Source: Paludibacter sp.
GTDB taxonomy: Bacteria; Bacteroidota; Bacteroidia; Bacteroidales; Paludibacteraceae
Length of the DNA stretch: 64,000 nt
Assembly (NCBI GenBank): GCA_037134195.1
Contig: JBAXMR010000008.1
Location: 1,141 to 65,140, forward strand
Direction of reading: 5' to 3'
The position numbers and the translations under genes are program-made. Positions 2,510 through 48,332 of this stretch are shown here, piece by piece; position 1 is the stretch's first letter; each line of letters begins with the position of its first letter. The notes beneath the pieces were generated by a model that saw only the letters and a program-made list of their open reading frames with translations, made no database searches and was not told the DNA's origin.

Positions 2510-4447
2510 TTATGGTAAGATTATTTTTCTTGAATATGTTGATTGATTGTATTTTATAGAAACTATGTAAATTCCTTTCTTTAACATAGAAAGTGTAGTT
2601 CTTTCAGCGTTGGAAATCTTTTTGTTGAATAACATGCTGCCCGGCAAGTCAAAAACATAGAGTTGAGCTGTTTCTCCATTTTGTATTTCTGAAATTGAAA
2701 TAGTTCCATTTTTATTAATGTATATAGAGTTCTCCTGATTTAGTTTAGTTTCTTGAATATCGGTGTTAGGAGTTGTAAAATTCACAGTATTTATTTTCCA
2801 AAAATCATTTGTATTTGTTACTCCGAAATAGCTTCCATGCGTACGAATCATTGTGAGGTCGGGTTTAATAGTGTTATTGTAATAATTGACCCCATCAATT
2901 GAGGTAAGTACCACACAAGGGCGTGGACAACCATCGATAATATTATCGTGTATATTATAGCTTTTCAAGCCTCCTGCAGGAGAGAATCCATTTTGAGGTG
3001 CTTTTGATACAACTACCAATGCACCAGCTTGAGATTGAGTAGTCATACTAGCATTATACATACAATTTTGAATGGAATTATTCCCAATTTCAATATTGCT
3101 GGGACAGCCACCTTCCATCCAATAAAATTCAGGTGCAAGTGCAATCCCACTCATAGCGCTTCCAACAACAGTATTCCCATTGATAATTCCATTCGAAGAT
3201 TTTATCAAAATAGCCCGTGAGCGATTATGGCCTACCTGATTATTGATAACTTTAAATCCGGCACCACTTCTATTCATAGAGTAGAAAATATCCGAAATTG
3301 CCATTCCTGTCACCCAATTATCGATGGTAATAACCATACCATTTGTCCACTGATTCCGCTGTGAACCAAGCTTGGCATAACAGGCAGTTAATTGAGCTGT
3401 GGTTGGTGCTGTTAAAGCTGTAGTTACTGACTTAGCCACTCCCTTTCCACGAATAGAGCCATCATTGTTAACACAAACAATGCTGTCGCCCACACTCATT
3501 TTAAAATCGCTCAAATTGCTCGAGGAACATAGCAAATAAATACTTTTACTGGTGGCATTAATATCATATACAGGATAAAAATTACCATTAATAGCAATGC
3601 AGTCATCTCCATTGAATTCAACTTTACATTCTTCGATAATAGGACCGATTTTAGCAAATTTGCTATGAATTCCATCGGCACTCCCAGCACGCAAACGCTG
3701 AATTGTGTATTTTGAATCGTATGGTTTTCTGGTTACATTGCAGCGATAATAATGCGTTTTTTCACAATCATATTCATAAAATGAAAAACAGTTCGAATCG
3801 TATATGGTAATGCTATCCAGCAACATATTTTTACAAGCATTTAGTATAATGCCGTGAGCTGGTATATTTGTTCCGGTTGCAACAACATCCAATACTACAT
3901 AATCTCCGATTTGAACCACGCTGTTTTTGTCGGACACCCCCGTGAGCTGGAAAGTTCTTGTTCCGGTTTTTGTAACAGTTGCACCATAAATGTCACCAAA
4001 ATTCTTTACTAATTCCAGAGTTGATTGTCCAAATACCTGGACTTTAGTTCCTTTTACACTGTCAACGGGGTAACCATCGTGAATGGTAATATCCCAGGTT
4101 TTTCTGTCTGATGATATGGTATTAATGGTGACTTGCGTACAACATGGTGGATCATATTCGATGTAAAAATTATTAAACACCACGTTTTCACAACTTGTAA
4201 ACGAAAAACACAGCTTCTGCCTATTACATATAATTGTAGAGCCATTTCCGTTAATTGTTATATTCTTTTTATTACTGAAAGAATATGCTCCATTGGAAAT
4301 TAAATCAAGCGAATAAGTGCCCTTTGTAACATTGATTACCGAATTACCGCTCTGACTATTCAGAATAGTTCGCAAATCGGGGTAAGTTGTACCATATAAA
4401 GAATAAACTACAAGTATAATTAGAAACAATAAAATAGTCCTTTTCAC
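2510..4447 (-). CDS. Secreted GH110-like right-handed beta-helix enzyme with T9SS C-terminal sorting domain (copy A)
   Basis: 645 aa with a signal peptide. Motifs are IEYDPPCCTQ, SADGIHSK-x17-GDDCIAING and HNRSRAILIKSSNG. The C-terminal ~70 aa (..LYVFDLPGSMLF..GIYIVSIKYNQSTYSRKIILP) look like a Por/T9SS CTD. About 9 of 10 residues match 15873..17816 by eye. It appears to start at GTG. Confidence 0.8.
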   Translation of the reverse strand: MKRTILLFLIILVVYSLYGTTYPDLRTILNSQSGNSVINVTKGTYSLDLISNGAYSFSNKKNITINGNGSTIICNRQKLCFSFTSCENVVFNNFYIEYDPPCCTQVTINTISSDRKTWDITIHDGYPVDSVKGTKVQVFGQSTLELVKNFGDIYGATVTKTGTRTFQLTGVSDKNSVVQIGDYVVLDVVATGTNIPAHGIILNACKNMLLDSITIYDSNCFSFYEYDCEKTHYYRCNVTRKPYDSKYTIQRLRAGSADGIHSKFAKIGPIIEECKVEFNGDDCIAINGNFYPVYDINATSKSIYLLCSSSNLSDFKMSVGDSIVCVNNDGSIRGKGVAKSVTTALTAPTTAQLTACYAKLGSQRNQWTNGMVITIDNWVTGMAISDIFYSMNRSGAGFKVINNQVGHNRSRAILIKSSNGIINGNTVVGSAMSGIALAPEFYWMEGGCPSNIEIGNNSIQNCMYNASMTTQSQAGALVVVSKAPQNGFSPAGGLKSYNIHDNIIDGCPRPCVVLTSIDGVNYYNNTIKPDLTMIRTHGSYFGVTNTNDFWKINTVNFTTPNTDIQETKLNQENSIYINKNGTISISEIQNGETAQLYVFDLPGSMLFNKKISNAERTTLSMLKKGIYIVSIKYNQSTYSRKIILP

Positions 4448-4655
4448 AGTTTTTAATTTGAATTTTTTTGATAAAAAAGATTATAAGTAGTTGGAATTAT
4501 TAATGTCCTAAATTAAAGCTAATTCTATTTCCTAAACGCAAAGGAGCAAAGTAAATATGACGCAAAGTAAATATTATCTTTGCGGCTTCGTGTCTTAGCA
4601 ACTCAGCGTTCAAAATACGATATTGTATTGTTCTCATTACTTATAAGTTAGTTTA

Positions 4656-5542: not shown

Positions 5543-5579
5543 ATTAGATTGCAGAATGATTAATTTACTTTTCAAGCCC

Positions 5580-5602
5580 CATTACTCAAAAATTGAGTAA
5601 TG
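5580..5602 (-). terminator. Candidate terminator hairpin downstream of 5652..9212
   Basis: A perfect 10-bp stem CATTACTCAA / TTGAGTAATG with a 3-nt loop sits about 50 nt past the stop codon. There is no clear U-tract. Confidence 0.4.
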
Positions 5603-5651: not shown

Positions 5652-8600
5652 TCAATTAATTATTATTTTTCTGATTATGCTCTTACCTTCATTTGTCAGT
5701 TTTACTAAATAAGCACCAACCGATAAATTGTTATTTTCCTGAATATTTGTTCCTGACAAATCTCTTGAAATTACTTTCTGGCCTACAGCATTGAATATTT
5801 CAAGCTTTGCTCTATTTACTGTACCATTCACAACAATCTGTCCATTACGGGTTGAAATCCAAACATTTCCATTATTTTCAGGATTAATTCCTGTTGTTGT
5901 TGAAGGAGCTTTGAAAGTCAGTGCGAAACGACTTGTATTAGCAGTTGTTATTTCTGAATAAAAATTATAAGCAGTAGTTGTCAAATAAGTAATTACCGGA
6001 TTCAGCGGATCAATATTATCTTTCAGTAAAATCTGTGTTCCTTCAGCAAAATTACTCATAAGAGAAGCGTTGATAGTAAAATCACCGGATTTTCCAGTTG
6101 TAAATCCAAGAGCTATTTCAGTATCGTAAGGTATGCTGTTCATAGTATTTATGGCAAGCTGTGAACCATCAACAACGGTAAATAACTCAGGTATATTTAC
6201 ATTGCCATTCGACATTTTACCGGAATCGTAAGCATCCAGATTATTAGTTGCTCCGGAATAAAACTTAATTATTGTTTCATCGCCTGTAATTCCATTGAAC
6301 ACATTCAAACCTAATAAACCATAGGTTTCGTTCTTTAAAGTAGGTGTTTTCAGTGGAGTGGTAGGCACAGTTCCAGTAATATCTGGCATTGTTACGGTTG
6401 TTGTATGCGAACGATTTGAATTAGACAAAGCGATGGACTGGTTGTTTAATTTTGTTCTCACCCAGAATCCCTGCATAGGCGGAATATATCCTGTTACCCG
6501 ACCGGTTAAGCTGGAATTGGTACCAAAACCGTCAGTAGAATTTACCGTTTCGCAATGGTAATAACCGGCTGCATCGCGGGTACGATACCATACCGTTGGC
6601 TCTATACCGGCTGAATTTGCACTGATGGATGGCAATACATTCAGATACGAAGGATATGGATTTCCAATCAGGTTAAATCCGTGTTTTGGATTAGCTGAAG
6701 TATAAGACAGACCGCTGATAGTTTGATCACCCGTATTTAAACCGGTACCGCTAAATGTAACCGTTGATGTTGCTACACTTGGTTTTACAATATAACCAGC
6801 TCCAAAAGCCATAGTTGTGGCTCCGCTTACCGTATTCCATACTGCGCCGGCTGCATATCCATTCGCACCGGTTGACTGATTTGTATCACTTTCGGGGTAG
6901 GAATAGAAAGTTAATGAACCTCCATCGACTCCTGGTAATGATGATGCACCTGATACCGGAGAACTCATATACCAGTTGCGGGATGAGCTAAGATATTGTT
7001 TTACAGTAGCTGAGGTTACTGAAGTTGTTCCTCCATAATCATTATAAGTTCCGGTACCATTTGTGCCATCACTGTTTATACTTATAGCAGAAGCTATTAA
7101 TGAGCTTGTATTCGTAACCTTACCACCACCTGCAATAGTAAGGCTGTTTATGTTCGTTGGTGCGTTTATTGTCAATAATGCAGCATTTCCTACTATTACA
7201 TCACTAACCGGTGTCAAGGTCAAAGAACCTATTGAAGTAGAAGATGAAACGTTGATATTATTTGCTGTTGCAGATGGTGTAACGGAACTTGAAGTTGTGC
7301 CCGAACCGGTTCCTCTGATATTCGTGGCAGTTGCAGTAAAGGTGTAGGCAGTTCCATTGGTTAAACCTATTACCTTAAGCGGACTTGTCGAACCTGTAGC
7401 AGTGAATCCACCCGGTGATGATGTGACAGTATAGGAAGTTATATCAGCACCACCATCACTAGCCGGAGCTGCAAAGGCTATAGATGCTTGCGCATTACCT
7501 GCGGTTGCCACTACTGATGTAGGTGCTCCCGGAACTGATGGATAATATTTTGCTGCTTCGTTGGTTGTTGTTGATTCATATAGCCAGCCTCTTGGCATAG
7601 AAGTACTGCTGAATGGTCCTGTTTTTGAAGTTTGAGAATAACCTAATACTAGATAATTGTTTACTGCCGGTGTGTATGAAGTATAATCTGCTGTAACTGT
7701 CAATGAGGCATTGGTTACATCAAGTTCTGTACACGAAATTTTATCGAAATCAGTTCCTGCAGTTGTTTTACCTTTGATTTGCATCAATACACTTCCATAA
7801 AGTGGGAATTTAGTACCGGCAGCCGATGGGGTTAACACGATTGTTCCAATTCCGCTCGTACCTCCGGTATAGTCGCCTGGCGAAAGTGTACTACCTGTAG
7901 CTGTTACCAAAGTGCTTGCTGCAAAGGTACAAGAACCATTGATGGTTGCACCATTGTTATTATTCAAAACAACCACTGAAGTCGCGGCAGTAGAACCACC
8001 TGAAACACCATAATTAAAGTTTATCACACCACCCGAATTGTTATTCAGTATTGGATAAGTGCTTGTTGTTCCTGATGTACCTGAACTCGTAATAGAACCT
8101 TTCGTTATGTTAATAGTTCCGGTATTTGTGAATGTCTGATTTGCAGCCTTAGTACTTAACTTTATAGCATTGGTGTAACCGTATAAATTCAATATTCCAC
8201 TATTTGTAAAAATATAGGGCATTGAAGAAGCTACATATATACCTAAAGCACTTGACACATCTTTTGAGTTAATAGTGGCAGTACCCGTATTTATAAACTT
8301 ACCATATCCAACAGTACTAGGAGCTGCTCCTCCAAAAACAGTGGGTTGTTCAAATCCACTTATAGATAGTGTCCCATTATTAGTAAATGAACAAAAAACA
8401 GATTCTGTGGTTTGCCACATATTAATAGCATGCAATGCAGTTCCTGATGTACTAGTACCAGCAGTGATATATATTGAGCCGTTATTAATTATTGAAGCTG
8501 AATTGGCCAAATAGAACGCATTTCGACCAGATCCAATATTAAGATTCAAGGTAGTACCGCTATTGATGGTTATTGTTGAGCCTGCAGTTGTTATATTAAA

Positions 8601-9212
8601 AGGAGTAAAGGCTAAAGAGCCTGTAGCATCTCCCATTGTGAAACCCGCTCCTCCAATCGTACCTGCCGCATTTTCCGCTGCTGTAAAGAAAGATGTAGAA
8701 GCTTTTCCAACTAAGCTGTTTATTCCATTAAAAGTTAAAGTATTACCAGTACCATTTATAGAAACACCATAATTTACTGTTGATGCATTTGCAGTAGTAA
8801 TGGACAATGTGCCTTGATTAACAAAAGTATTTGTACCAGCCAGATACATTGCACCAGTTGTAGCTCCAGCAGTATTTAGGCCGGGGGCAATTGTGAGCGT
8901 ACCATTGTTTGTTAAGCTCGCTCCAGCGCTAAATGAGATTTTTTCCACATTCACGGTAGTTCCAACTGCAATAACTACCGATTTGCCAGCATTAATTGTA
9001 ACAATATCAGCTGCAGTCGGAACTGCTGAACTAACTGATGCAGTGGTGCTACTTGTACTCCAGTTAGAAATAGTAGCCCAATCGGTATTGGTTGTACCAA
9101 AGAAGTAGAGCGGCGTTGCATAAGCTCCGGAAGAATAAACCAAGCCAATAAAAAGCAAGGCGATAAATTTATAAACGCTCCGATAATTGAAAGAAATTGA
9201 TTGATTTTTCAT
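5652..9212 (-). CDS. Giant T9SS cargo: beta-strand stalk module, Fn3, ~450-aa unknown domain, T9SS CTD (type B)
   Basis: 1186 aa with a signal peptide. The stalk (TDWATISNWS..NNGTLTI.. repeats, ..LSPGDYTGGTSGIGTIVL..GTDFDKISCTELDV..) is homologous to the N-termini of 13650..15830 and 9396..13424. The Fn3 reads APTSVVATAGNAQASIAFAAP..YTFTATATN. The CTD reads ..KLEIFNAVGQKV..GAYLVKLTNEGKSIIRKIIIN. Confidence 0.8.
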   Translation of the reverse strand: MKNQSISFNYRSVYKFIALLFIGLVYSSGAYATPLYFFGTTNTDWATISNWSTSSTTASVSSAVPTAADIVTINAGKSVVIAVGTTVNVEKISFSAGASLTNNGTLTIAPGLNTAGATTGAMYLAGTNTFVNQGTLSITTANASTVNYGVSINGTGNTLTFNGINSLVGKASTSFFTAAENAAGTIGGAGFTMGDATGSLAFTPFNITTAGSTITINSGTTLNLNIGSGRNAFYLANSASIINNGSIYITAGTSTSGTALHAINMWQTTESVFCSFTNNGTLSISGFEQPTVFGGAAPSTVGYGKFINTGTATINSKDVSSALGIYVASSMPYIFTNSGILNLYGYTNAIKLSTKAANQTFTNTGTINITKGSITSSGTSGTTSTYPILNNNSGGVINFNYGVSGGSTAATSVVVLNNNNGATINGSCTFAASTLVTATGSTLSPGDYTGGTSGIGTIVLTPSAAGTKFPLYGSVLMQIKGKTTAGTDFDKISCTELDVTNASLTVTADYTSYTPAVNNYLVLGYSQTSKTGPFSSTSMPRGWLYESTTTNEAAKYYPSVPGAPTSVVATAGNAQASIAFAAPASDGGADITSYTVTSSPGGFTATGSTSPLKVIGLTNGTAYTFTATATNIRGTGSGTTSSSVTPSATANNINVSSSTSIGSLTLTPVSDVIVGNAALLTINAPTNINSLTIAGGGKVTNTSSLIASAISINSDGTNGTGTYNDYGGTTSVTSATVKQYLSSSRNWYMSSPVSGASSLPGVDGGSLTFYSYPESDTNQSTGANGYAAGAVWNTVSGATTMAFGAGYIVKPSVATSTVTFSGTGLNTGDQTISGLSYTSANPKHGFNLIGNPYPSYLNVLPSISANSAGIEPTVWYRTRDAAGYYHCETVNSTDGFGTNSSLTGRVTGYIPPMQGFWVRTKLNNQSIALSNSNRSHTTTVTMPDITGTVPTTPLKTPTLKNETYGLLGLNVFNGITGDETIIKFYSGATNNLDAYDSGKMSNGNVNIPELFTVVDGSQLAINTMNSIPYDTEIALGFTTGKSGDFTINASLMSNFAEGTQILLKDNIDPLNPVITYLTTTAYNFYSEITTANTSRFALTFKAPSTTTGINPENNGNVWISTRNGQIVVNGTVNRAKLEIFNAVGQKVISRDLSGTNIQENNNLSVGAYLVKLTNEGKSIIRKIIIN

Positions 9213-13424: not shown

Positions 13425-13451
13425 TTGATTGAATTATTTTAAAATTTATTG

Positions 13452-19838: not shown

Positions 19839-19989
19839 TTACTGGATTATATGATACTCCCTTTTCTTAGGACAGTTTTAGCAGCAAGTTAAGATATTTA
19901 TTTTTGCTGCAAGTTTGGTTTTGCTCGGACAAAACGGGAAATAACTTTTTTGGCCGCCCCTGCGAGCCATGAAAAAAGTTATTCTCGTT

Positions 19990-20850: not shown

Positions 20851-21104
20851 TCATTTTCGACTTTCAATTGACCAATTTGAGCATATAAAACCTGAGTCTG
20901 ATTTGCAATCTCCTTATCATCGGCCACTTCATTTGAAAAAACATTGCTGAAATTTTTCAATGCCTGGCTGCGCCACATAGAAATCTGGGTCGGTTGAAGT
21001 TCATACTTTTTGGCTAAACTTTCTAATGTTTCGCGCTCCTTTAATGATTCTAAAACCACTTTCGCTTTAAATTCTTTACTGAATTTTCTCCTTGATGTTG
21101 ACAT
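20826..21104 (-). CDS. IS3 transposase orfA (HTH)
   Basis: 92 aa, MSTSRRKFSKEFKAKVVLESL..., ending ..FLKKKLL* on the slippery TTTCTAAAAAAAAAG. Confidence 0.85.
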   Translation of the reverse strand: MSTSRRKFSKEFKAKVVLESLKERETLESLAKKYELQPTQISMWRSQALKNFSNVFSNEVADDKEIANQTQVLYAQIGQLKVENDFLKKKLL

Positions 21105-21379
21105 AAAATTTTTGGTTTAAAGATAATACAATTATATCTTAGCTTTATGTCCAATTTTTGGGGAGTATCATATTATTCCTCAAAAATAACTAAGATATTT
21201 AAACGAACAGTATTTTTAAGATTGATATTCCTTACCAATTAGAACAATAATATTACAATTTGTATCAAAACTATCAGAATCTCTCATAATTAACAATCTT
21301 AGATTTGAAAAACTCAAAATAATCACTACTTTAGTCGCATAATTCAAAAAAATATATATAATAATAAAATGAAACACGC

Positions 21380-27251: not shown

Positions 27252-27282
27252 AACAAATTGACCATTAATAATAAATGAGTTT

Positions 27283-36640: not shown

Positions 36641-38347
36641 TTACCATAGAGGATTTTGAGGCCAATTTACACCATTTGTAAACAAAACTCTTTGAGGAAT
36701 TGGATAAAAGTACATTTTAGGTTCGAATACCCGCTGTTCCACAATTACTTTTTCATACGTATAATCGAATTCTGTTGGAGTTATTTTGACACCATAAAGC
36801 GGTGTACTCAAAACAACAGGAGCAGTCATCCAGCGTCTTACATCCCAAAGCCGATGGTCTTCGAATGCCAGTTCAATGCGACGTTCATTTCTTATTTTAT
36901 CACGCATAACTGGTTGAGATAGCGTGGTTGGAATTGCAGGCATACCAATTCCCGACCGTTGACGGGTTTTGCTTGCGTACAAGGAAATATCGGTGTTTCC
37001 GGGATCGTATTCATTTAGTGCTTCAGCATAATTCAGGTAAATTTCCGAAATACGGAAAACCGGCCATGAATGAACACTTGTTCTTCCTAATGTCAAATCC
37101 AATGTTTCATCAATGAATTTCTTAATGTAGTACCCCGTAGTTGTTGCATTGGCAATTCCATATCCATTTGCTCCGCCTTGAGACATATCAAGGTAAATGG
37201 TCTTAAACTTCGACTGATGATAATAAACAGACAAAGCCAAACGGGGATCTCTGTTGTTATATGGCGATGCTTTATGAGAAGGATTATTCCAGTCAAATTT
37301 AGTTCCATCTTTCATTTCATAATCATCCACGAGGTTTTGAGAAGGTGTAACTCCGCCTTTTCCAACTACATATCCTATCGGGTAATTATTTGTTTCATAG
37401 GTATTATAGGCAGTATTCCGGCGAACCAAAATCAATTCGGGGTCATTATACGTTCGACCAATCAGCCCGTAATTGGAAATTAAAGTATAGGTGGAGCCGA
37501 CTAAATCAATTAAATCTTTAGCAGCTTTGGCAGCAGCTTTCCATTTTTCAGTTCTATCACCGGTAACTGAAATTAATTCAGGATTTGAATAACCGGTTGC
37601 CCAGGATGGAGTATTGAATAAATCGCTTGCAGCATAAAGTAGCATTCTGCTTTTTAATGCCATTGCAGCACCTTTGGTTGCTCTGCCTAAATCCACATCA
37701 AGAGCATAAGTTACTGGCAAAGCACCAACTTTAGAGACTGAATCACACTCACTTACAATAAAGTTGATGCATTCATCCAATGTGTTTCGGTTTATTTTGC
37801 TGAAATCAGTATTTAAGTTCAATACATCATTAATTAATGGTACGCCTCCATAGCGTTTTACCAATTCAAAGTAATAATATGCTCTCAGAAATCTTGCTTC
37901 GTATTTCCAGTTTTTTATCTCTGCCAAACGTGTTTGATAAACAGCCTGAGCCGATGTACTTGGATCATTTTTATAAGCATCCAGGTTTACTGAATCTGAA
38001 CCGGCTAAAAATACATTCACTTTACGAATTGCTTTATAGTATTTATCCCACACATCATCGGGATTTGTAAACGCATTCCACGAACCTGAATTAATTGTTT
38101 GAGCCCCTCCTTTGTAGGTATATTCAGCTTCATCGCTTGCTGATGCCATCATCGCATTACCTAGTGCCAGAAAGCCATCATTCATATCGGCATACAAGCA
38201 TACTTGTTGACTTTTCAGATAATTGTATTGACTGGAAACCTGTTGTTGTGTCAAATAAGGTTCCATTTCCCGAGTCAAATCTCCGCAAGAAGTTAACAAA
38301 ACTATTGTCAACGCACTCAAAAAATATAATTTGTTTTTCATTTTCAT
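36641..38347 (-). CDS. susD: SusD/RagB-family outer-membrane lipoprotein (pair 2)
   Basis: 568 aa with lipobox LLTSCGD. It has typical SusD TPR-like features (..RAYYYFELVKRYGGVPL.., ..YLNYAEALNE..) and sits directly downstream of a SusC-like gene. Confidence 0.9.
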   Translation of the reverse strand: MKMKNKLYFLSALTIVLLTSCGDLTREMEPYLTQQQVSSQYNYLKSQQVCLYADMNDGFLALGNAMMASASDEAEYTYKGGAQTINSGSWNAFTNPDDVWDKYYKAIRKVNVFLAGSDSVNLDAYKNDPSTSAQAVYQTRLAEIKNWKYEARFLRAYYYFELVKRYGGVPLINDVLNLNTDFSKINRNTLDECINFIVSECDSVSKVGALPVTYALDVDLGRATKGAAMALKSRMLLYAASDLFNTPSWATGYSNPELISVTGDRTEKWKAAAKAAKDLIDLVGSTYTLISNYGLIGRTYNDPELILVRRNTAYNTYETNNYPIGYVVGKGGVTPSQNLVDDYEMKDGTKFDWNNPSHKASPYNNRDPRLALSVYYHQSKFKTIYLDMSQGGANGYGIANATTTGYYIKKFIDETLDLTLGRTSVHSWPVFRISEIYLNYAEALNEYDPGNTDISLYASKTRQRSGIGMPAIPTTLSQPVMRDKIRNERRIELAFEDHRLWDVRRWMTAPVVLSTPLYGVKITPTEFDYTYEKVIVEQRVFEPKMYFYPIPQRVLFTNGVNWPQNPLW

Positions 38348-38359: not shown

Positions 38360-41116
38360 TTAAAACTGAATTTTTGCTCCAACACTAACTGTTTTTACAG
38401 AAGGATACCCTGTCATTGACTCAGGATCAAGCACTTTTAAATAATCAAGCGAAAAAAGATTTGTTCCATTCACGAATACTCTTAAATCGCCTTTCGATGA
38501 ACTGATTAGGTTTTTAAATGTATATCCAAGTTCTACATCCCGCAATTTAATAAAACTGCCATCGCGTTGCCAAAAAGTTGAAGATTGGTAATTATTCAAA
38601 TCGTCTGCGGCCGATAATCTTGGATAGGTAGCAGTTGCAGCAGTTTCAGGCGTCCATCTATTTAAGGCAAAATCAGATATATTCCCTTTCGATTGGAATG
38701 CCTTGAAATAGCTGGCTCCTAAATAAATAGTTCTGTTGGTAACAGCCTGAAAAAAGGCGGAGAAATCGAATCCATAAAACTTGCAACCCAGATTTAGTCC
38801 AAAAGTAACTTCCGGAGTACTGGTTTTACCAATCGGGAAATAATCATTACCATCAATAATTCCATCACCGTTTTGATCTTTATACTTTATGTCACCAGCT
38901 TTTACAACTTGCCAGGTTGGTTTGGCAACTGTAGCATCAACTATTTCAGCATCAGTGTAAAAACCTAAGGCCTGCAATACATAGGGTTGAAATATTTGGC
39001 GTCCTGTTTTATAAAAATAATCTTCCTGTTGTTTTGCTTCCGAATTATACACAATCTTGTTTTGAGCCATCCACGCCTGAGCCTGAATATAATATTGTAC
39101 GTCTTTGTTTACTTCTACATTATAGGTCGCAGAAACTTCAAACCCCTGATTATTTACTTTTCCTACATTTAAGTATGGTAAATCGACTCCTATATAAGAT
39201 GGAATGTCCCGATTTGGAGTTGAAAGAATATCAAAACGATTGTTATTAAAGTATTCAAAAGAAATATCAAGTTTTTTAAACAGTTTTGTATCAAACCCGA
39301 TGTTGAATTTTGCTTCTTTTTCCCAGGTTACATCCGGATTTGCTAATGCTCCCTGAATAATTCCGTTCAACGTTGCATTTGTTGTTCCCAGATAATAATT
39401 GGCGGAATAAATATAGTTTTGTTTATACATAAAACGAGTTCCACCTATATCATCATTTCCGGTTAAACCATACGAAGTACGGAATTTTAAATAGGATACG
39501 ATTGGATTATCTTTAAGAAAGCCCTCTTCGGAAGCAACCCAACTTAATCCACCTGCAGGGAAAAACCCATATTGTTTTCCAATTGCAAAATTCTCTGAAC
39601 CCTGATAACCAAATGAAAAATTAGCATTGTATTTATTATTATAGGTGTATGAAATAAATCCATTCACACCAACATGTCTGTAAGCTTGTTGTCCCCCAAC
39701 CTGATTTTCTTGCTCGTTGCTGTATTTTGTTTCAATATCAACTCTATGATTTTCAAAAGTCCGGTTATAATCAAGATATAATTCCTGAGTTGAATTCCGC
39801 CATTGGCTGGATGAACTTTCGTCACCAACCAATGAGGATTTTTGACCAAATGCCGTTCCGTAAACAGGATTGCCATCCGGTCCTAACGTTATTGGAAATC
39901 GCTCATAAGTCTTTGTTTTATTTGAGTTACCGATATAATAACTATTAAACGAAAGAGCACCTGAAATACTTAAACCTTTTGTAATTACGTCCAACTCTTG
40001 CTTTAATCTGATTGAAGTATTTAAACCGCGTGCATTTGATGTATAATATCCTGTTTGGATTATGTCACCGAGTGGATTTGTAAAATTCCCATTTCCCCCA
40101 AAACTACTATTCGGATTATATACAGGAAATGAGTTCGGATTAATCAACCCCAATAAATTAAACAGGTTCGATGTAGTTTGCGCTCCGGGGTTTGTTTTAT
40201 CTTCAATGTTTAATCCAAGCGTAATTGCAGCTGAGAAACTCTTTGTAATATTTAAATCCAGATTCGACCTTACATTGACACGGTTATAGGATTGATCTTT
40301 AGAATTTGCTGAAAGATTTCCTGTCCTGATTAATAAACCCTCATTACTTAATTCATTAATCATTACATTGTATCTCACTGTTTTATCACCTCCTTTAAAA
40401 TTAAGATTGAACTTTGACAATGGTGATCTTTGTCTTAAAACTTGTTCGTACCAATTTACATCAGGATGATAAAGAGGGTCGCTTCCAGTTTTGTAGGCTT
40501 CTAAATCGGTATCGCTGTATCGCGGATTGGGAACTCCGTTGTTAGCAAGAGCTTCGTTATATAATCTGGCATAATCATACGAACCTAAAAAGTGAGGTAA
40601 TCTGTTAGCCTGCTGAAAACCAACCTGAGTGCTAAAACTCACTTTCAATGGAGAAATCAAGCCTCTTTTAGTTGTAACCAACAATACGCCATTAGCACCT
40701 CTTAATCCATAAATGGCAGTTTCAGCAGCATCTTTCAGTAATTTAATGGACTCAATTTCTTCCGGGATTAATTCCGAGAATGAACTTGCAAATCCATCTT
40801 CAAGTACCAACATTTGCGTTCCACCAGTGTAGGTTGCAATGCCTCTGGATAGTAAAGAATTAGAAACAACTCCCGGTTCGTCTGATCCCTGAGACACTGT
40901 CAGTCCAGGTATTCGTCCCATTAATGAATTCAACAGGTTGGGAACAAACATTTTTTCTAATTCACTACCTGAAATAACAGATAGATTATTGGAAATCAAC
41001 TTTGCAGTCAAAGTATCGTTCTTCATTTTCAGATTTTGAGCTGAAGAATTGTAAAAGACTCCGGAAAGGAGAAAAATGAATAGCAAATATTTTAATTTAT
41101 TTATCATGATTTTCAC
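38360..41116 (-). CDS. susC: SusC/RagA-like TonB-dependent transporter, short form lacking the N-terminal carboxypeptidase-regulatory-like domain (pair 2)
   Basis: 918 aa. After the signal peptide it runs directly into the plug (..LMGRIPGLTVSQGSDEPG..). The C-terminus ends ..SVGAKIQF. Confidence 0.85.
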   Translation of the reverse strand: MKIMINKLKYLLFIFLLSGVFYNSSAQNLKMKNDTLTAKLISNNLSVISGSELEKMFVPNLLNSLMGRIPGLTVSQGSDEPGVVSNSLLSRGIATYTGGTQMLVLEDGFASSFSELIPEEIESIKLLKDAAETAIYGLRGANGVLLVTTKRGLISPLKVSFSTQVGFQQANRLPHFLGSYDYARLYNEALANNGVPNPRYSDTDLEAYKTGSDPLYHPDVNWYEQVLRQRSPLSKFNLNFKGGDKTVRYNVMINELSNEGLLIRTGNLSANSKDQSYNRVNVRSNLDLNITKSFSAAITLGLNIEDKTNPGAQTTSNLFNLLGLINPNSFPVYNPNSSFGGNGNFTNPLGDIIQTGYYTSNARGLNTSIRLKQELDVITKGLSISGALSFNSYYIGNSNKTKTYERFPITLGPDGNPVYGTAFGQKSSLVGDESSSSQWRNSTQELYLDYNRTFENHRVDIETKYSNEQENQVGGQQAYRHVGVNGFISYTYNNKYNANFSFGYQGSENFAIGKQYGFFPAGGLSWVASEEGFLKDNPIVSYLKFRTSYGLTGNDDIGGTRFMYKQNYIYSANYYLGTTNATLNGIIQGALANPDVTWEKEAKFNIGFDTKLFKKLDISFEYFNNNRFDILSTPNRDIPSYIGVDLPYLNVGKVNNQGFEVSATYNVEVNKDVQYYIQAQAWMAQNKIVYNSEAKQQEDYFYKTGRQIFQPYVLQALGFYTDAEIVDATVAKPTWQVVKAGDIKYKDQNGDGIIDGNDYFPIGKTSTPEVTFGLNLGCKFYGFDFSAFFQAVTNRTIYLGASYFKAFQSKGNISDFALNRWTPETAATATYPRLSAADDLNNYQSSTFWQRDGSFIKLRDVELGYTFKNLISSSKGDLRVFVNGTNLFSLDYLKVLDPESMTGYPSVKTVSVGAKIQF

Positions 41117-41143: not shown

Positions 41144-42904
41144 TTACCACCCCGGGTTTTGAATTAAATACCCTTTGTCAATTTCTCCCTGAGGGAAAGG
41201 ATGACGATACATGGCAGTTTTGAATGTACGTACTTCAAACACATAAGGTTCGTATCTGCATTCGGTGGTAGTTCCTGAAGAGTTAACTATTTTGTATATT
41301 TTAAGACCATACATATTTCCCTTCATTACGCCATCATTTTCAGCAATTTCCCAACGCCGGATATCATACAGTCTGTGACCTTCGTAAGCCAGCTCAACAG
41401 CACGTTCATTTCTAATCTTTGTCCTGAACTGTTCCTGTGTTAAAGTTCTTGGCCAAACCGGCATTCCCGAACGTTTTCTGATAACATCAACAGCATCATA
41501 AGCCTCTGCCGGAGGTGTTGAATAAAATTCATTCAGAGCTTCAGCATAATTCAGATAACATTCAGCCAATCTGAAAACAATACCGTTTGGAATTGCAGAA
41601 CCATTGGTACTTGAAATTGAGTAAGGAACAGGCTTATGAACACTTTCGCCGGTTATGGTTGCATTTCTTCCCAAAATGGAAATATCTCTGCCGGTTGTCA
41701 AATCTCTACCGTTCGAAAAATCTAAAATTGGATAATCCGCATTCCAAGGTTGGTTTTGATAAACAATTGTTTGTCCAAAACGCGGATCTAAAGCCGCATA
41801 TTTGGCAAGCAAATCACTTCCACCATTCATATTCCAGGTTTGTGGTGTTCCATCTGCTTTTTCGTAGAATTGAGTGAAATTAAATGTTGCATTTAAACCT
41901 CCACCAAAACCTCCACAGGATTGAGGAATTGATGAACCCCAAGGAAAATTAGCACGAAGCATAGATCCTTTTGATTTTTCCGCAAGAATTATTTCAGCGT
42001 TATCATTGGTTTCCCACACATACCGATAATTTTTAGTAACACCCTGATCGATAATGATTACATGACCTGCTAATAAAGCCTGGTCTATTGCAATTTTTGC
42101 AGCATCAGCAGCTAATTTCCAACGATTTACATCATAATTTCCATAGCAAATTAATTTGTTGTTTGCTCCAAAATCGATGTATGGTGTGGCTGTATTGAAT
42201 GTTTTGCTTGCAGCATATAATAAGGTTCTTGATTTAAGTGCCATTGCTGCAATTTTCGTAGCTCTACCTCTTAACGAAGTAGGATAATCTTTAAAATTTG
42301 GCAAATCTGCAATAGCATCATCACAGTCTTTCACAATAAAATTAACAACATCTTCAACGGAGCTTCTTGGAATATTAAGGTTTTCGCTCAACGTAAATCG
42401 ATGATCAACAATAGGAACACCCCCGTATTTTCTGAAAAGCTCAAAATTATTTAAGGCTCTGATAAATTTAGCTTCACCTCGCACTTGTTGTTTGTATGCA
42501 TCGTCATTAAACGGTGCATTATCAATGCGTTCAATAATAATATTTGCTCTGCGCAAAGCTGACCAATGAGTTTTGAATCTGTTATCGCGGGTAGTGTTTG
42601 AATTCATATTAGCCGAGTTCCAACCTTGTGCCCAGTACCAACTCTGAACTATTTCAGCTTCGTCGCAAGCAGCTGCATTCGAACAATCACTTTTGTCGCG
42701 GGCATCCCACATCGGAAGGTCTGACATAACACCATAATAATAAGTGCCTGCAACAAAAGTTTCCACTTGTGTTTTTGTCGAAAAAATGGTATCTTCAGTA
42801 ACATCTACCCCCGGAGCTTTTTCCAAAAAATTTATAACACCATCACAGGAGTTGAAAGCACTAATCAGAACTAAAAATATCGGTATATATAGTATCCTTT
42901 TCAT
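41144..42904 (-). CDS. susD: SusD/RagB-family outer-membrane lipoprotein (pair 1)
   Basis: 586 aa with lipobox AFNSCDG. SusD-like sequence ..RALNNFELFRKYGGVPI.., ..YLNYAEALNEF.. Confidence 0.9.
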   Translation of the reverse strand: MKRILYIPIFLVLISAFNSCDGVINFLEKAPGVDVTEDTIFSTKTQVETFVAGTYYYGVMSDLPMWDARDKSDCSNAAACDEAEIVQSWYWAQGWNSANMNSNTTRDNRFKTHWSALRRANIIIERIDNAPFNDDAYKQQVRGEAKFIRALNNFELFRKYGGVPIVDHRFTLSENLNIPRSSVEDVVNFIVKDCDDAIADLPNFKDYPTSLRGRATKIAAMALKSRTLLYAASKTFNTATPYIDFGANNKLICYGNYDVNRWKLAADAAKIAIDQALLAGHVIIIDQGVTKNYRYVWETNDNAEIILAEKSKGSMLRANFPWGSSIPQSCGGFGGGLNATFNFTQFYEKADGTPQTWNMNGGSDLLAKYAALDPRFGQTIVYQNQPWNADYPILDFSNGRDLTTGRDISILGRNATITGESVHKPVPYSISSTNGSAIPNGIVFRLAECYLNYAEALNEFYSTPPAEAYDAVDVIRKRSGMPVWPRTLTQEQFRTKIRNERAVELAYEGHRLYDIRRWEIAENDGVMKGNMYGLKIYKIVNSSGTTTECRYEPYVFEVRTFKTAMYRHPFPQGEIDKGYLIQNPGW

Positions 42905-42915: not shown

Positions 42916-45900
42916 TTAAAATTTCACATTTAAGCCCAAATTCAACGTTCTGACAATTGGATATGGTTCGTAATTCGCATCATTGTAAGTTGGGATTTCG
43001 GGATCTTCTCCGGGAAATAAATTGTCGAATGTCAATAGGTTAGTGCCATTTACAAAAATACGCGCTGAGCTAATTCCTATCGCTTTGATTAGTTTACCTT
43101 CGAAACTATATCCTACTTCAAGATTTTTCAAACGAAGATAGCTTGCATCTCTTATCCATAATGTGGAAGCCTGATAATTACTGGTTTGATTAGCATCAGA
43201 AGACAAATGAGGAAAAGAAATTGGCAATCCCTGTTCATATCGTTCCTGAGTCCAACTCCAATCTTTTAAATAATCAATGGCAGAACCTTCTTCCTGAAAC
43301 CCACGATTGAATTTTTTAGAGGCCTGTAATGAAACATTACTACTACCCTGAAATAATACCGAAAAATCAAAACCCCTATAATCTGCACCAAATGAAAATC
43401 CATACGAAACTTCGGGGAAATCGGAATAACCAATCGGAACCATGTCTTTCGAATCAATTACAGCATCACCGTTTACGTCCTTATATTTTACATCGCCGGG
43501 TTGAATTTTATTGTTCTGATAGGAGTAAACGGGTCTGTTTACATCATTTACTTCTTCCCATGTATTATAAAAACCTTCATCAATAAAACCAAAATATTGA
43601 TTCAGTCGTTGGCCTGTACGTTGAATATACGGATAGGCAGGAGTAACTTCGTCTTTGAAAATGATTTTATTACGTGCAAAAGTATAAATTGCTTTGAACC
43701 AATAATTTAGTTTTCCTACTTTATCCCTAAAATTAAATTCTCCATCAAATCCACCATTTTCCATTTCGCCGAGATTATAGGCAGGTAAATTCGCACCAAC
43801 AATTACCGGAAGCGTTAATTTATTTGCCAAGATATTTCTCCTGTGTTCTTTAAAAATATCGGCAGTTATTTTAATTTTGTCTTTCCACAAAGAAACATCA
43901 AAACCTATGTTCATCTTAACTGAACGCTCCCATGTTAATTCAGGATTACCCATTTTGCCTTCGGTTGAAGTTGTGTTTAATGTATAATTACTTCCAACAG
44001 TTCCATACCAATAAGCAACATTATCATTGTTGTTACCCGAAGCAGTATTGTAAACAAAAGCAGTAGGGCGATATAGAAATCGTTCTCCACCAATTTTGTC
44101 GTTACCCACTTCACCATAAGACCCTCTGATTTTAAGGAATGAAATCGCATCGTTTTTTGGAAAAAACTCCTCTTCGGAAGCAACCCATCCGGCAGAAAAA
44201 GCAGGAAAAAGACCAAAACGTTTACCTGAAACGAAATTTTCAGTACCATTATAACCAATATTCACTTCGGCTAGATACTTGCTTTTAAAGTCATAAGTAG
44301 CCCTACCTACAATTCCCTGATATGAATTTGGGATAAGAAAAGCTAATCCGGGATCGTAATAGCGACTTTGATTATAAAGTAATAATCCACCCACATTATG
44401 ACTACCCAGTTTTCTTGAATAGTCAAAACCGGCTTCTAAATACTCCTTTCTGTTTTTTCCGAAAGATTCTGATACACTATAAGGCCCATCAGTGCCCTGA
44501 GGAATGTAAACAGCTGATGTTCCATCCACTCCTTTAATAGCACTATAGGTAATCATATCTTTCACATATTTTTGATCCACTAGATTGTAGTTTTGATATG
44601 ACATTACCGCATGTGCCGATAGTCCTTTTGTGATTGCGTCAAGCTTCAAGTTAAAACGCAATGAACCGTTTAATTGATTCGTATATTCTCTTAGTTGACC
44701 ATTTCCAACAACCAATAAATACAATGGGTTTCTGATAAAATTATATTGACCCGAAAGGTTCTCAATCAATTTTCCATCAACAATACCTGGACCCGAAATA
44801 GGAGGATGGGCAAATGCGTTTGATAAAATATAGGCACTGCTATTGGACGGACCATTTCGGTTTTCTAATTGATCGGATAGATTCAAAGAGATTGAAAAAG
44901 CTTTGGATATTTGAAAGTCAAAATTAGATCTGAAATTATATCTGTTATATTTTACCTGAGTATCGTATCCATTGATTAAAGATGTATTGTTATACATACC
45001 TTCTTGCGAAAAGTAACCTACCGAAACGAAATATTTTACTTTTTCGGTGCCACCATTGATGTTCAGATTATGTTGTGTTTGAGTTGAATAATCTTTAAAT
45101 ATTAAGTCTATCCAATTTGTGTTCGGATAAAAAATAGGGTCAGAACCAGTTCGATACTTTTCAATCTCAGCATCTGTAAATTTTGGAGTATAGTTACCTG
45201 TTAAATAACCATCATATTTGCGGGTTTCATTGAAAGATCTGGCATAATCATAGCTATTCATCTGTTTTCTAAGATTTGTAAATCCTGCAACTGCAAAGTT
45301 TGACGAGTAACTTAACTGAGGTTTTGAAATACCACCACGTTTGGTCGTAATCAATATTACGCCATTTGCACCGCGTACACCATAAACAGCTGTTGCCGAT
45401 GCATCTTTTAATATGGAAACATTTTCAATCTCATTAGGGTCAATAGCATTATAATTGGCTGTTTCAATTCCATCAACCATAACTAATGGACTTTGCAGGT
45501 CAACATTTGCATCTGTTGCAAATGAGCCAATACCACGAATACGAATTGTAGATTGATCTTTGCCAGGTTCGCCGCTTTTTTGAACAGCAGTTAAACCTGA
45601 CAATCGACCAACCAACGCATTGCTGATATTTGCCTGTGAAGATTGAACCAATTGTTTTGTTCCTACTGATGATACAGCACCAGTAACAGTAGCTTTATTT
45701 TGCTTCCCATAACCGACCACCACAACTTCAGTCATATTAAAAGACTCATCTTCCAAAACAACTTTCAAATTTGTTGTTTTTTCAATCGAAACACTTTGCT
45801 GAACCATTCCTATGAATGAAAAAATAAGATTTCGAACAGTTTTAGGAACATTTAATATGAATCGTCCATCTGATCCAGTTACAGTGCCAATACCTGCTAT

Positions 45901-46128
45901 ATTTTCAGATTTAACTGTAACTCCTGGCATAGGATTTCCTGAAGCATCTTTTACAATGCCATTAACTTGCTTTTTTTCTGTAAGATTTTGATTGTTGTTA
46001 ATCTTAGTTTGAGCATGAAGTGATTCTACCGACGAAAACAGTATAACACTAAAGAAAAGGAAAACACACAAAATAGTCTTATACCTATTTGTTGCTAAAA
46101 ACCAACGAACTGTTTTATCAGTCTGCAT
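42916..46128 (-). CDS. susC: SusC/RagA TonB-dependent transporter, full length (pair 1)
   Basis: 1070 aa. It has a CarboxypepD_reg-like segment (VNGIVKDASGNPMPGVTVK), EVVVVGYGKQ, a plug and a barrel. It ends ..LGLNVKF. Confidence 0.9.
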   Translation of the reverse strand: MQTDKTVRWFLATNRYKTILCVFLFFSVILFSSVESLHAQTKINNNQNLTEKKQVNGIVKDASGNPMPGVTVKSENIAGIGTVTGSDGRFILNVPKTVRNLIFSFIGMVQQSVSIEKTTNLKVVLEDESFNMTEVVVVGYGKQNKATVTGAVSSVGTKQLVQSSQANISNALVGRLSGLTAVQKSGEPGKDQSTIRIRGIGSFATDANVDLQSPLVMVDGIETANYNAIDPNEIENVSILKDASATAVYGVRGANGVILITTKRGGISKPQLSYSSNFAVAGFTNLRKQMNSYDYARSFNETRKYDGYLTGNYTPKFTDAEIEKYRTGSDPIFYPNTNWIDLIFKDYSTQTQHNLNINGGTEKVKYFVSVGYFSQEGMYNNTSLINGYDTQVKYNRYNFRSNFDFQISKAFSISLNLSDQLENRNGPSNSSAYILSNAFAHPPISGPGIVDGKLIENLSGQYNFIRNPLYLLVVGNGQLREYTNQLNGSLRFNLKLDAITKGLSAHAVMSYQNYNLVDQKYVKDMITYSAIKGVDGTSAVYIPQGTDGPYSVSESFGKNRKEYLEAGFDYSRKLGSHNVGGLLLYNQSRYYDPGLAFLIPNSYQGIVGRATYDFKSKYLAEVNIGYNGTENFVSGKRFGLFPAFSAGWVASEEEFFPKNDAISFLKIRGSYGEVGNDKIGGERFLYRPTAFVYNTASGNNNDNVAYWYGTVGSNYTLNTTSTEGKMGNPELTWERSVKMNIGFDVSLWKDKIKITADIFKEHRRNILANKLTLPVIVGANLPAYNLGEMENGGFDGEFNFRDKVGKLNYWFKAIYTFARNKIIFKDEVTPAYPYIQRTGQRLNQYFGFIDEGFYNTWEEVNDVNRPVYSYQNNKIQPGDVKYKDVNGDAVIDSKDMVPIGYSDFPEVSYGFSFGADYRGFDFSVLFQGSSNVSLQASKKFNRGFQEEGSAIDYLKDWSWTQERYEQGLPISFPHLSSDANQTSNYQASTLWIRDASYLRLKNLEVGYSFEGKLIKAIGISSARIFVNGTNLLTFDNLFPGEDPEIPTYNDANYEPYPIVRTLNLGLNVKF

Positions 46129-46478: not shown

Positions 46479-46559
46479 TAGCTGATTGTTTTTAGTGTAA
46501 ACCAACTGCATAATAAATCTTATATCAAACTAAGAATTCACAAAATAAAATATAAAACG

Positions 46560-48332
46560 ATGTACAAATTTAGGAATCTAATTATTCTAAGCACAATAAT
46601 AACTATTAATAGTGTTATTGCACAAAAACAGATTGATGTCGCTGATTTTGGTGTTAATCAACAAACAGTCGACTGTACGCCTGGAGTAATAAAAAGTTTA
46701 AAAGCCTGCAAGAATGCTGGTGATGCTGTTCTTATATTTAAAAAAGGTGTTTATCATTTCGATTCGGATTATGGCAAAGATAAATATTGTTTTATCAGCA
46801 ACAATGACGAAGGTTTAAAGCGTATTGTCTTTTTGTTAGAAGACATGAACAACCTCACTATTGATGGTCAAGGATCAATTTTTATTTTTCATGGTTTTTT
46901 AAATCCCTTTGTGATTAACAACTCGAGAAATGTCAAATTGAAAAATTTCTCAATCGATTATACTCGTCCATTTCACAGTGAGGCTATAATAACTGCCAAT
47001 AATGCAGATGGAATTGACATTGAAATACCTAAAACTTTTCCATATCGGATTAACAATGGCACGTTAGTTTTTACAGATGGGGGGAAAGAAGAAGGTCAGA
47101 AAACAACTGTCAGCAAAGAAATTATTTACGAATATGGACACCTACTTGAGTTTGATACAAAAAAACGTGAAACTGCCTTTATGGCAAAAGATTACTATTT
47201 GGGTGGCACACCATTAGTTGCATCAAGTTTGGGAGAGAGAAAAGTGCGGCTTTTCATGAAAACCCTAAAGGGAACAATTGGAAATACAATGGTTTTTGCT
47301 TTTGCCAACCGCAACTATCCGGGGTTTTCTGTTTCAGATTCTCGTGACATCCGCTTTGAAAATGTGACTATATATCATGCAGGGGGCATGGGAATAGTAT
47401 GCCAACGTACCCGAAATATCTCCGTTATATCATGTAACGTTAAACCCTCCAATGGTCGTATGATAAGCACTACGGCTGATGCCACTCACTTTACAAACTG
47501 TACAGGGAAAATTGAATTGGGGAATTGTGTTTTCCAAAATCAAATGGACGATGCAACTAATATTCACGGTATCTATGTTCAAATTGCCGAACGTTTAAGT
47601 CCTACTGAATTTATTGTGCAACTAAAACACAAACAACAATTGGGATTTGACTTTCTAAAAGCCGGTACATTAATTGAATTTGTGCAAGGCAAAAGTCTTA
47701 TTACAAAAGGACAGGCTAAAGTGATTGAATCCAAACGATTAAACAAAGATTTCAGGCGTGTAAAGTTATCATCAGAATTGCCCTGCGGCATTGAGATTGG
47801 CGATGCAATAGGTGAAGTGTGTGATTCGCAGTTTGTATATATACATGATAATTATATTGGTCAGAATCGTGCACGAGGAATGTTGCTAAACTGTTATGGA
47901 AAAACAATTGTTGAAAACAATCGATTTCATTCACCGGGAGCTGCTATTCTTTTTGAGGGCGATGCAAGTTTCTGGTTTGAGCAAGGTGGTGTTACAGATT
48001 GTACCATTCAAAATAATATTTTTGATAATTGTCTTTTCGGGGTTTGGGGAAAAGCCATCATTGATGTTGGTGCCGGAATTAAAGAGAATAGAGATTCAAG
48101 TCGGTATAATAAGAATATCAAAGTATTAAACAACACATTCCGAACTTTCGATGAAGGTTTATTGCTTCAGGCATATTGTGTAGATGGTTTGCTGTGGAAA
48201 GGCAATAAAATTGAGAAAACAACTGATTATCCAGCCACTCGGGTTTCAAGTTCTCTTTTCAAGGTTGAAAGCAGCGACAATATTAATATAGACCAAGATA
48301 CTTCGAATAATAAATACGTTTATGTTAAATAA
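46560..48332 (+). CDS. GH110-like alpha-galactosidase-type beta-helix glycosidase
   Basis: 590 aa with a signal peptide. Sequence reads ..IDVADFGV..KKGVYHF..NLTIDGQGSIFIFHGFLNPFVI..NFSIDYTRPFHSEA... The Asp cluster is TADATHF-x17-MDDATNIHG. PbH1-like repeats follow (QNRARGMLLN..). Confidence 0.7.
   Translation: MYKFRNLIILSTIITINSVIAQKQIDVADFGVNQQTVDCTPGVIKSLKACKNAGDAVLIFKKGVYHFDSDYGKDKYCFISNNDEGLKRIVFLLEDMNNLTIDGQGSIFIFHGFLNPFVINNSRNVKLKNFSIDYTRPFHSEAIITANNADGIDIEIPKTFPYRINNGTLVFTDGGKEEGQKTTVSKEIIYEYGHLLEFDTKKRETAFMAKDYYLGGTPLVASSLGERKVRLFMKTLKGTIGNTMVFAFANRNYPGFSVSDSRDIRFENVTIYHAGGMGIVCQRTRNISVISCNVKPSNGRMISTTADATHFTNCTGKIELGNCVFQNQMDDATNIHGIYVQIAERLSPTEFIVQLKHKQQLGFDFLKAGTLIEFVQGKSLITKGQAKVIESKRLNKDFRRVKLSSELPCGIEIGDAIGEVCDSQFVYIHDNYIGQNRARGMLLNCYGKTIVENNRFHSPGAAILFEGDASFWFEQGGVTDCTIQNNIFDNCLFGVWGKAIIDVGAGIKENRDSSRYNKNIKVLNNTFRTFDEGLLLQAYCVDGLLWKGNKIEKTTDYPATRVSSSLFKVESSDNINIDQDTSNNKYVYVK

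Follow-up and report, generated by a model that had tools for sequence, protein, structure and literature searches.

Remote homologs of glycoside hydrolase family 110 with a conserved Asp triad and an apparently rebuilt sugar pocket in a polysaccharide utilization locus of a Paludibacter-like bacterium

The window analyzed in this study is a stretch of 64,000 nucleotides (nt) from contig JBAXMR010000008.1 (positions 1,141 to 65,140 of the forward strand; assembly GCA_037134195.1) of a Paludibacter-like Bacteroidales metagenome-assembled genome. It harbors a polysaccharide utilization locus that an IS3 element interrupts, and it contains five genes, referred to as P1 to P5, whose products belong to or resemble glycoside hydrolase (GH) family GH110. 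P5 (46560..48332, plus strand; catalytic residues D307, D330, and D331) is a canonical GH110 exo-alpha-galactosidase with a signal peptide only. The other four genes lie on the minus strand. P1 (2510..4447; predicted catalytic residues D258, D281, and D282) and P3 (15873..17816; D260, D283, and D284) are GH110-like proteins of a type exported by the type IX secretion system (T9SS), P3 consisting of the GH110-like module and a type A C-terminal sorting domain. P2 (9396..13424; D961, D984, and D985) is a multidomain T9SS protein with a GH110-like module, and P4 (32013..33692; D273, D296, and D297) is a GH110-like sister-family enzyme with a signal peptide only. P1–P4 are genuine but remote GH110 homologs, which lie outside the GH110 core at the level of family models.

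An original prediction, made from the letters of this DNA, had described the five proteins as copies of one beta-helix module with a shared Asp cluster. All five open reading frames (ORFs) were found where it had placed them and on the same strands, and the motifs read exactly as it had quoted them. A regular-expression scan located exactly one D-x22-DD pattern per protein, at homologous positions in all five, so that the lone Asp precedes the Asp pair by 23 and 24 residues throughout (e.g., D258 versus D281/282 in P1). The further sequence blocks that it had listed were also present and were mutually aligned by hhalign, namely (I/V)(D/E)YDP..C..Q corresponding to IDYTRPFHSEA, NR(S/A)R(G/A), and W(M/L/F)E.G(G/C). 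In an all-against-all BLASTP comparison, P1 and P3 shared 86% identity and the C-terminal 614 residues of P2 were 44% identical to P1/P3. P4 was 29–31% identical to P1–P3 (E ~1e-65 to 1e-70), and P5 showed ~22% identity to the other four (37–55 bits). Judged by these alignments, the likeness among the five proteins is homology and not chance. A six-frame scan of the window with hidden Markov models (HMMs) of both families returned only these five proteins and no sixth copy.

The assignment of P5 as a canonical GH110 enzyme held. The protein matched the Pfam models for GLAA-B barrels I and II (PF23763 and PF23764, above cutoff) and Beta_helix, and it aligned over residues 22–578 with PdGH110B (PDB 7jw4) at E = 5.4e-157. 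In PdGH110B, Asp-344 is the general acid and Asp-321/Asp-345 are the bases of an inverting mechanism, and the same machinery is used by GH28, GH49, and GH87 (PMC7939477). The triad D307/D330/D331 of P5 falls on D321/D344/D345 of PdGH110B (chain number = P5 number + 14), which agrees with the earlier proposal that the Asp cluster is the catalytic machinery. P5 also retains all seven residues (7/7) that form the galactose −1 subsite (N81, R251, N334, R439, E466, W472, and E474); their counterparts in PdGH110B are N85, R265, N348, R453, E480, W486, and E488 (PMC7939477). At the +1 site, the 7jw4 alignment places G192/H193 of P5 on K207/R208 of PdGH110B. P5 is probably not tuned to lambda-carrageenan, because Gly-His replaces these two basic residues, which face the sulfated side of that polymer.

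The closest known relatives of P1–P4 are the exo-alpha-1,3-galactosidases GlaA/GlaB of CAZy family GH110, with structures for PdGH110B (7jw4/7jwf), PdGH110A (9beh), AmGH110 (8pvs), AgaBb (8yk1), and PpaGal (9i4f). The relationship was assessed at the level of sequence and fold. Single-sequence searches of the PDB returned GH110 chains only, with E = 9e-7 for P3 (8pvs, Asp motifs aligned) and E = 0.016 for P4. A profile built from 25 sequences of the divergent family likewise yielded strong matches only to GH110 chains (E = 4e-18 to 7e-15), and in this alignment the motifs ADAfHSK and gDDcvnicG sit on ADATHF and kDDatnihG. When the divergent profile was compared with a 15-sequence GH110 alignment by hhalign, the two were colinear over 480 columns with 99.94% probability (E = 2.3e-37), from residue 26 to the C-terminus and including both barrel inserts. 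A purpose-built GH110 HMM gave full-sequence E-values of 1e-11 to 3e-25 for P1–P4 at Z = 1e6. These values would suit a reading in which P1–P4 are very divergent GH110 alpha-1,3-galactosidases with the specificity of P5, that is, redundant isozymes that differ in location and form a GH110 subfamily. Counting against redundancy, however, the HMM matches were split into two to three pieces with best-domain E-values of only 2e-14 to 4e-6, and the Pfam GLAA-B barrel models found no match in P1–P4 even at E <= 1.

Structure predictions were consistent with the profile comparisons. The AlphaFold2 models of P4 and P3 reached a predicted local distance difference test score (pLDDT) of 92.4 and 89.5 and a predicted template modeling score (pTM) of 0.90 and 0.81, respectively. 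In Foldseek searches against the PDB, the best 15 matches of either model were all GH110 chains, at E = 5e-26 to 3e-22, a query TM score (TMq) of 0.64–0.73, and 14–16% identity for P4, and at E = 3e-28 to 2e-22, a target TM score (TMt) of up to 0.72, and 14–18% identity for P3. Both models matched full-length GH110 chains across the beta-helix and the two inserted beta-barrels (TMq 0.58–0.73, ~580–640 columns), and for P1 and P2 the same architecture is deduced from their homology to P3. The shared architecture is compatible with isozymes of P5, but identities to GH110 structures of only 14–18% count against that reading. The next fold in the lists was the AlgE4 epimerase (E = 2e-9 for P4 and 2e-7 for P3, TM ~0.4), so that beyond GH110 the E-values drop off by more than 15 orders of magnitude. 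Tailspikes, beta-helix lyases, GH28, and GH87 came later, at E 1e-6 or worse. P1–P4 resemble GH28, GH49, and GH87 (clan GH-N-type) in carrying three acidic residues on a beta-helix, the arrangement associated with inversion in these families (PMC7939477). Unlike P1–P4, those hydrolases lack the inserted barrels, and their Foldseek matches remained at E = 1e-6 to 1e-5 and TM <=0.4.

The original prediction had grouped P1–P4 into a single divergent subgroup. They are indeed GH110-related and divergent, but they fall into two subgroups rather than one, with P4 only ~30% identical to P1–P3. In a neighbor-joining tree the P4 type formed one clade, whereas the list of T9SS-type sequences was paraphyletic, since the sequences farthest out in it come close to the P4 type. 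Therefore, the split into two subgroups is descriptive and not a proven clean bifurcation.

Conservation of the active site was examined in an alignment of 334 sequences, which comprised ~118 P4-type, ~90 T9SS-type, and ~120 GH110 sequences plus the five proteins from the window. In PdGH110B numbering, the triad D321, D344, and D345 was present in 100% of the P4 type, the T9SS type, and GH110. The His of the DAxH motif (100%, 98%, and 100% in the P4 type, T9SS type, and GH110, respectively), R453 (100%, 100%, and 99%), and W486 (99%, 100%, and 100%) were almost equally constant, followed by E488 (100%, 80%, and 100%) and R451 (100%, 86%, and 100%). N348 was invariant in the P4 type and GH110 (100% each), whereas 77% of the T9SS type carried Ala at this position, as does P3 (A287). 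Three residues that are nearly universal in GH110 are lost in both divergent groups. The loop bearing N85 (100% of GH110) is absent from both; R265 (100% of GH110), the ligand of O2/O3, is replaced by Ala, Thr, or Ser in the P4 type and by a gap, Thr, or Glu in the T9SS type; and E480 (99% of GH110) is replaced by Ser, Ala, or Thr in the P4 type and by Ala, Ser, or Gly in the T9SS type. In P1–P4 themselves, R265 is changed to T/V and E480 to A/S, and the N85 loop is deleted. P4 retains N300, R422, R424, W456, and E458, and has no equivalents of the N85 loop, R265, and E480. Thus, four of the seven residues of the galactose −1 subsite are present in P4 (N348, R453, W486, and E488) and three of the seven in P1–P3 (R453, W486, and E488).

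In addition to these substitutions, both divergent groups differ from GH110 by deletions and insertions. The missing segments are a 14-residue loop that bears N85 (P5 70–83) and a barrel-I loop (P5 171–174 and 186–192) adjoining the +1 residues K207/R208. Gained segments comprise 7 residues ahead of the first catalytic Asp, a helical stretch of 20–22 residues within barrel II, and 4 residues that include an invariant His (H211 in P4). The divergent family furthermore has invariant basic residues at R266, R268, K278, and K429 (P4 numbering), and the aligned positions of P5 and PdGH110B are not basic. P1–P4 share with GH110 the D...DD triad at identical spacing, DAxH, NRxRG with its two Arg, the Trp platform, and the Glu of the WxE motif, and, as read from the aligned sequences, their sugar pocket is substantially rebuilt. 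The identical triad and the conserved Trp, Glu, and Arg of the −1 site would be expected of isozymes with the specificity of P5, but the loss of N85, R265, and E480 in both subgroups, and of N348 in the T9SS type, would not. Since the galactose pocket is only partly kept, alpha-1,3-galactosidase specificity of P1–P4 should not be assumed.

One of the lost residues offers a hint at the nature of the ligand. In GH110B, Glu-480 blocks a 6-sulfate pocket, and the 6-sulfo-galactosidase GH110A has Arg-460 at this position (PMC12549532). The small residue at the E480 position of the divergent family, together with its extra basic residues, suggests that the predicted pocket has room for an anionic substituent. 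In this respect P1–P4 would resemble PdGH110A, an exo-6-sulfo-alpha-D-galactosidase of a lambda-carrageenan cascade in which a change at the E480 position opens the 6-sulfate pocket (PMC12549532). PdGH110A is, however, a regular GH110 enzyme with Arg at this position and an otherwise intact −1 site, whereas the divergent family has Ser or Ala there and several further changes, and occurs for the most part in Bacteroidales, Verrucomicrobiota, and Planctomycetota that are not marine.

The divergent family proved to be large. Word-indexed searches retrieved at least 915 relatives of P4, all named 'parallel beta-helix repeat protein' or 'hypothetical', and ~97 relatives of P3, which came from Bacteroidales wherever the organism was named (Paludibacter, Barnesiella viscericola, Dysgonomonas). 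The best hits that carried an organism name came from Paludibacter sp., at 88–90% identity. Most P3 relatives had a T9SS tail, and some had weak precomputed matches to GH28 (PF00295). A profile search of 1.84 billion representatives gave 1,214 clusters at E <= 1e-30 and 4,046 at E <= 1e-10 (clustered at 50% identity), including multidomain proteins of 900–1,650 residues. Among the GTDB species representatives, 167 loci contained relatives of the divergent family. The best 80 of these were distributed over Bacteroidota, Verrucomicrobiota, Planctomycetota, Kiritimatiellae, Lentisphaerae, Armatimonadota, and others, and their Verrucomicrobiota carriers included Akkermansiaceae, Opitutus, Chthoniobacter, Haloferula rosea, and Prosthecobacter. 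In the sequences retrieved, the P4 type thus appears in many phyla and the P1–P3 type in Bacteroidales only. No published account of this family came to light in a literature search that covered GH110-like proteins, novel beta-helix GH families of utilization loci, and the pairing of GH110 and sulfatases in Verrucomicrobia; one article considered as a possible candidate (PMC12269599) was unrelated. We conclude that the divergent proteins represent a large, uncharacterised sister family of GH110.

The three export contexts proposed for the module were corroborated: P1 and P3 are free T9SS cargo, P2 is stalk-fused T9SS cargo, and P4 has a signal peptide only. P1–P3 have hydrophobic N-termini, and their T9SS type A sorting domains scored 37.3 (P1), 31.0 (P2), and 38.1 bits (P3) against TIGR04183 (cutoff 23). 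The sorting domain (TIGR04183/PF18962) is absent from P4 and P5, in which inspection shows a hydrophobic N-terminal signal that lacks a lipobox Cys. From this signal, P4 is probably periplasmic. The T9SS sorting domain of P1–P3 and the stalk of P2 are additions not seen in GH110. P2 is organized, in this order, into an fn3 domain, a stalk of ~500 residues, a second fn3 domain, the GH110-like module (residues ~729–1266; nt ~9627–11240), and the T9SS sorting domain.

A stalk region of ~600 residues (G8/Amnionless-like region plus fn3) is common to P2 and two further proteins encoded on the minus strand, with 49–63% identity among the three. One is a 726-residue protein (13650..15830) that consists of the stalk alone and a weak T9SS tail, the stalk being 55% identical to that of P2. 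The other is an 1186-residue T9SS protein (5652..9212) composed of a stalk (63% identical to 13650..15830), ~470 residues without assignment, and a sorting domain; its residues ~640–1105 had no Pfam, NCBIfam, or PDB match, and in the C-terminal half only the T9SS tail matched the PDB. Next to P3 lies the gene of a 594-residue T9SS protein with PMP-repeat and choice-of-anchor-Q-like features (17922..19706, minus strand). At least two further genomes have such a partner gene as a conserved neighbor of their GH110-like gene of the T9SS type, and the partner proteins there (loci L007 and L006) share ~30% identity with the 594-residue protein over the full length. The 594-residue partner has no sequence relative in the PDB, and Pfam and NCBIfam searches with it and the stalk proteins returned only fn3, sorting-domain, and weak choice-of-anchor-Q matches. 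P1 and P3 arose by a recent gene-sized duplication, with 82% nt identity over 2018 nt (2451–4465 versus 15811–17825). The similarity ends within ~60 nt of the ORF ends, and no remnant of the 594-residue partner gene was found upstream of P1. The ~1.2 kb between P1 and the 1186-residue stalk protein (4448–5651) contain no ORF of >=90 residues on either strand.

Further genes of the window belong to the polysaccharide utilization locus. A hybrid two-component sensor/regulator (21380..25402, plus strand) is followed on the minus strand, in order of increasing distance, by GH2 (25467..27311), a GH27 alpha-galactosidase family protein (27283..28500), a fusion of GH88 with polysaccharide lyase (PL) family PL8 (28612..31998), P4, a sulfatase (33704..35296), a DUF5013/BT_3987-type surface glycan-binding protein (35313..36605), and two SusD/SusC pairs (SusD, 36641..38347; SusC, 38360..41116; SusD, 41144..42904; SusC, 42916..46128). 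The plus strand then carries P5 and, directly downstream with an 11-nt overlap, a GH2 with a malectin domain (48322..50961). The GH88-PL8 ORF encodes 1128 residues, with an N-terminal GH88 unsaturated glucuronyl hydrolase and a complete PL8 lyase that resembles chondroitinase AC (E = 2e-105, short of the equivalog cutoff). One polypeptide therefore unites a lyase with the hydrolase that would act on its product. The IS3-family element (19846..21176, minus strand) seems intact, with a 92-residue orfA (20826..21104), an rve-domain orfB (19990..20778), and 16-nt terminal inverted repeats that are 94% complementary. It is inserted where the sensor gene and the T9SS cluster have their divergent promoter region; in related genomes, the two adjoin.

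The genomic context of the divergent family was evaluated in the best 80 of the 167 species-representative loci; because single-sequence queries were used, the counts for sulfatases and other neighbors are lower bounds. A canonical GH110 gene was located within 10 kb, often adjacent, in 24 of the 80 loci, a sulfatase nearby in at least 15, and a second divergent copy in 10. A cassette of GH110, one or two sulfatases, and a divergent enzyme recurs in Akkermansiaceae and other Verrucomicrobiota, and in Terrimicrobium a P4 relative stands beside GH110, GH2, and a galactose-1-phosphate uridylyltransferase. In two cases all three enzyme types occur in one locus. One contig (L005/L004) encodes a sensor, a T9SS-type enzyme, GH110, SusC, SusD, SusC, SusD, a P4-type enzyme, GH43, GH110, a family 2 carbohydrate esterase (CE2), and GH2. 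Locus L010 encodes, on one strand, GH110, a T9SS-type enzyme, a sulfatase, SusC, SusD, a P4-type enzyme, an unknown protein, GH2, GH88, a second unknown protein, and a sulfatase. Two Barnesiella loci (L007 and L006) contain a T9SS-type enzyme, the 594-residue partner, and the sensor. In L005/L004, L010, L007, and L006 the T9SS enzyme lies inside the utilization locus, and the hybrid sensor gene adjoins it in L005, L006, and L007. PdGH110A operates in a cycle together with GH2, GH110B, and sulfatases, enzyme classes that also neighbor the divergent family. Co-location with GH110 and GH2, as in alpha/beta-galactan cascades, could be taken as a sign that P1–P4 duplicate the activity of P5, but the systematic co-occurrence with a canonical GH110 in one operon argues for complementary rather than redundant activity. 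With these observations added to the evidence from sequence and active site, we consider redundant isozymes unlikely.

Taken together, we interpret P1–P4 as GH110-type inverting glycosidases that are functionally coupled to GH110, and we assign to this core claim, though not to the less certain details of the substrate, a probability of roughly 0.7. The estimate draws on homology, fold, residue conservation, export signals, and synteny. Because they have the same architecture and the three catalytic Asp, P1–P4 most likely hydrolyse an axial (alpha) pyranoside linkage by single-displacement inversion, in which the leading Asp of the pair would serve as acid while its second Asp and the lone Asp would jointly activate water. 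We infer a specificity that differs from plain alpha-1,3-galactose. The most likely target would be an alpha-galactosyl linkage, either decorated (e.g., sulfated) or internal, of an anionic glycan, and P1–P4 would most likely complement GH110 on a sulfated, acidic, galactose-containing glycan. In such a pathway, the T9SS forms (P1, P3, and the stalk-mounted P2) would act on the polymer outside the cell, the fragments would be imported by SusC/D, and P4, P5, GH2, GH27, the sulfatase, and the GH88-PL8 fusion would complete the breakdown in the periplasm.

Several points weigh against this interpretation. How the three Asp are arranged in space and whether the site is a pocket or a cleft are read from alignment, and the idea of a sulfated substrate leans on one position (E480) and the neighboring sulfatases. 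The −1 sugar may not be galactose, because three to four of the seven residues that bind it in GH110 are gone. Family members are named only 'beta-helix repeat protein' or, occasionally, 'GH28', and their activity is a predicted one. The neighbors vary among loci (GH43, GH115, SASA, GH97, PL8/GH88, and sulfatases), and because 56 of the 80 loci show no GH110 nearby and the neighborhoods are heterogeneous, the family may act on several glycans.

A more far-reaching proposal, which we advance tentatively, is that P1–P4 constitute a new GH family that stands beside GH110 in clan GH-N as its sister and has a specificity foreign to GH110; the candidate activities are those of an alpha-galactanase/galactosidase that is endo-acting or tolerates sulfate. 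Together with GH110, GH2, and sulfatases, these enzymes would then form a widespread, undescribed pathway for a sulfated uronic-acid galactan in freshwater, sediment, and gut Bacteroidales, Verrucomicrobiota, and Planctomycetota, initiated extracellularly by the T9SS forms. That the divergent modules are instead non-hydrolytic, i.e., beta-helix lyases, epimerases, or non-catalytic binding or adhesin modules such as a PL29-like surface glycosaminoglycan lyase, appears highly improbable: the locus in the window does resemble chondroitin-type loci (chondroitinase-AC-like PL8, GH88, sulfatase, and DUF5013 binding protein), which in Bacteroides carry a surface PL29 lyase, and AlgE4, RbmB, and K1 lyase occur far down the fold-search lists, but GH110 is the sole strong structural and sequence relative with its gap of >15 orders of magnitude in E-value to lyases and epimerases, the three acidic residues of clan GH-N-type hydrolysis, needless for a binding module, are 100% conserved in ~200 members, PL8/GH88 are missing from most family loci, and no Bacteroides protein named PL29 was among the homologs. 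A PL29 lyase function of P4 of the BT3328 type, considered on account of the chondroitin-like locus, was set aside because GH110 was its only strong relative.

Beyond the original prediction, the analysis adds the two subgroups of a large sister family, the rebuilt pocket, and the cross-phylum coupling to canonical GH110 and sulfatases. Practical interest in GH110 enzymes comes from the conversion of red cells of blood group B to type O, and ecological interest from carrageenan turnover. A large multi-phylum sister family with intact catalytic machinery, a rebuilt pocket, and linkage to GH110 and sulfatases is a target in the search for new specificities and perhaps for a further CAZy family, and it could aid in identifying the sulfated glycan that Bacteroidales, Planctomycetota, and Verrucomicrobiota from non-marine settings harvest. 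Because the catalytic module occurs in T9SS-exported and stalk-mounted versions, a natural set of constructs is at hand with which its roles at the surface and in the periplasm can be compared. Finally, conserved-position proteins without a Pfam match were noted in the related loci, at 11711–13732 and 17411–19291 of L010 (673 and 626 residues) and at 9261–9860 of L004 (199 residues), as candidates to supply those functions in backbone cleavage or binding that are missing.

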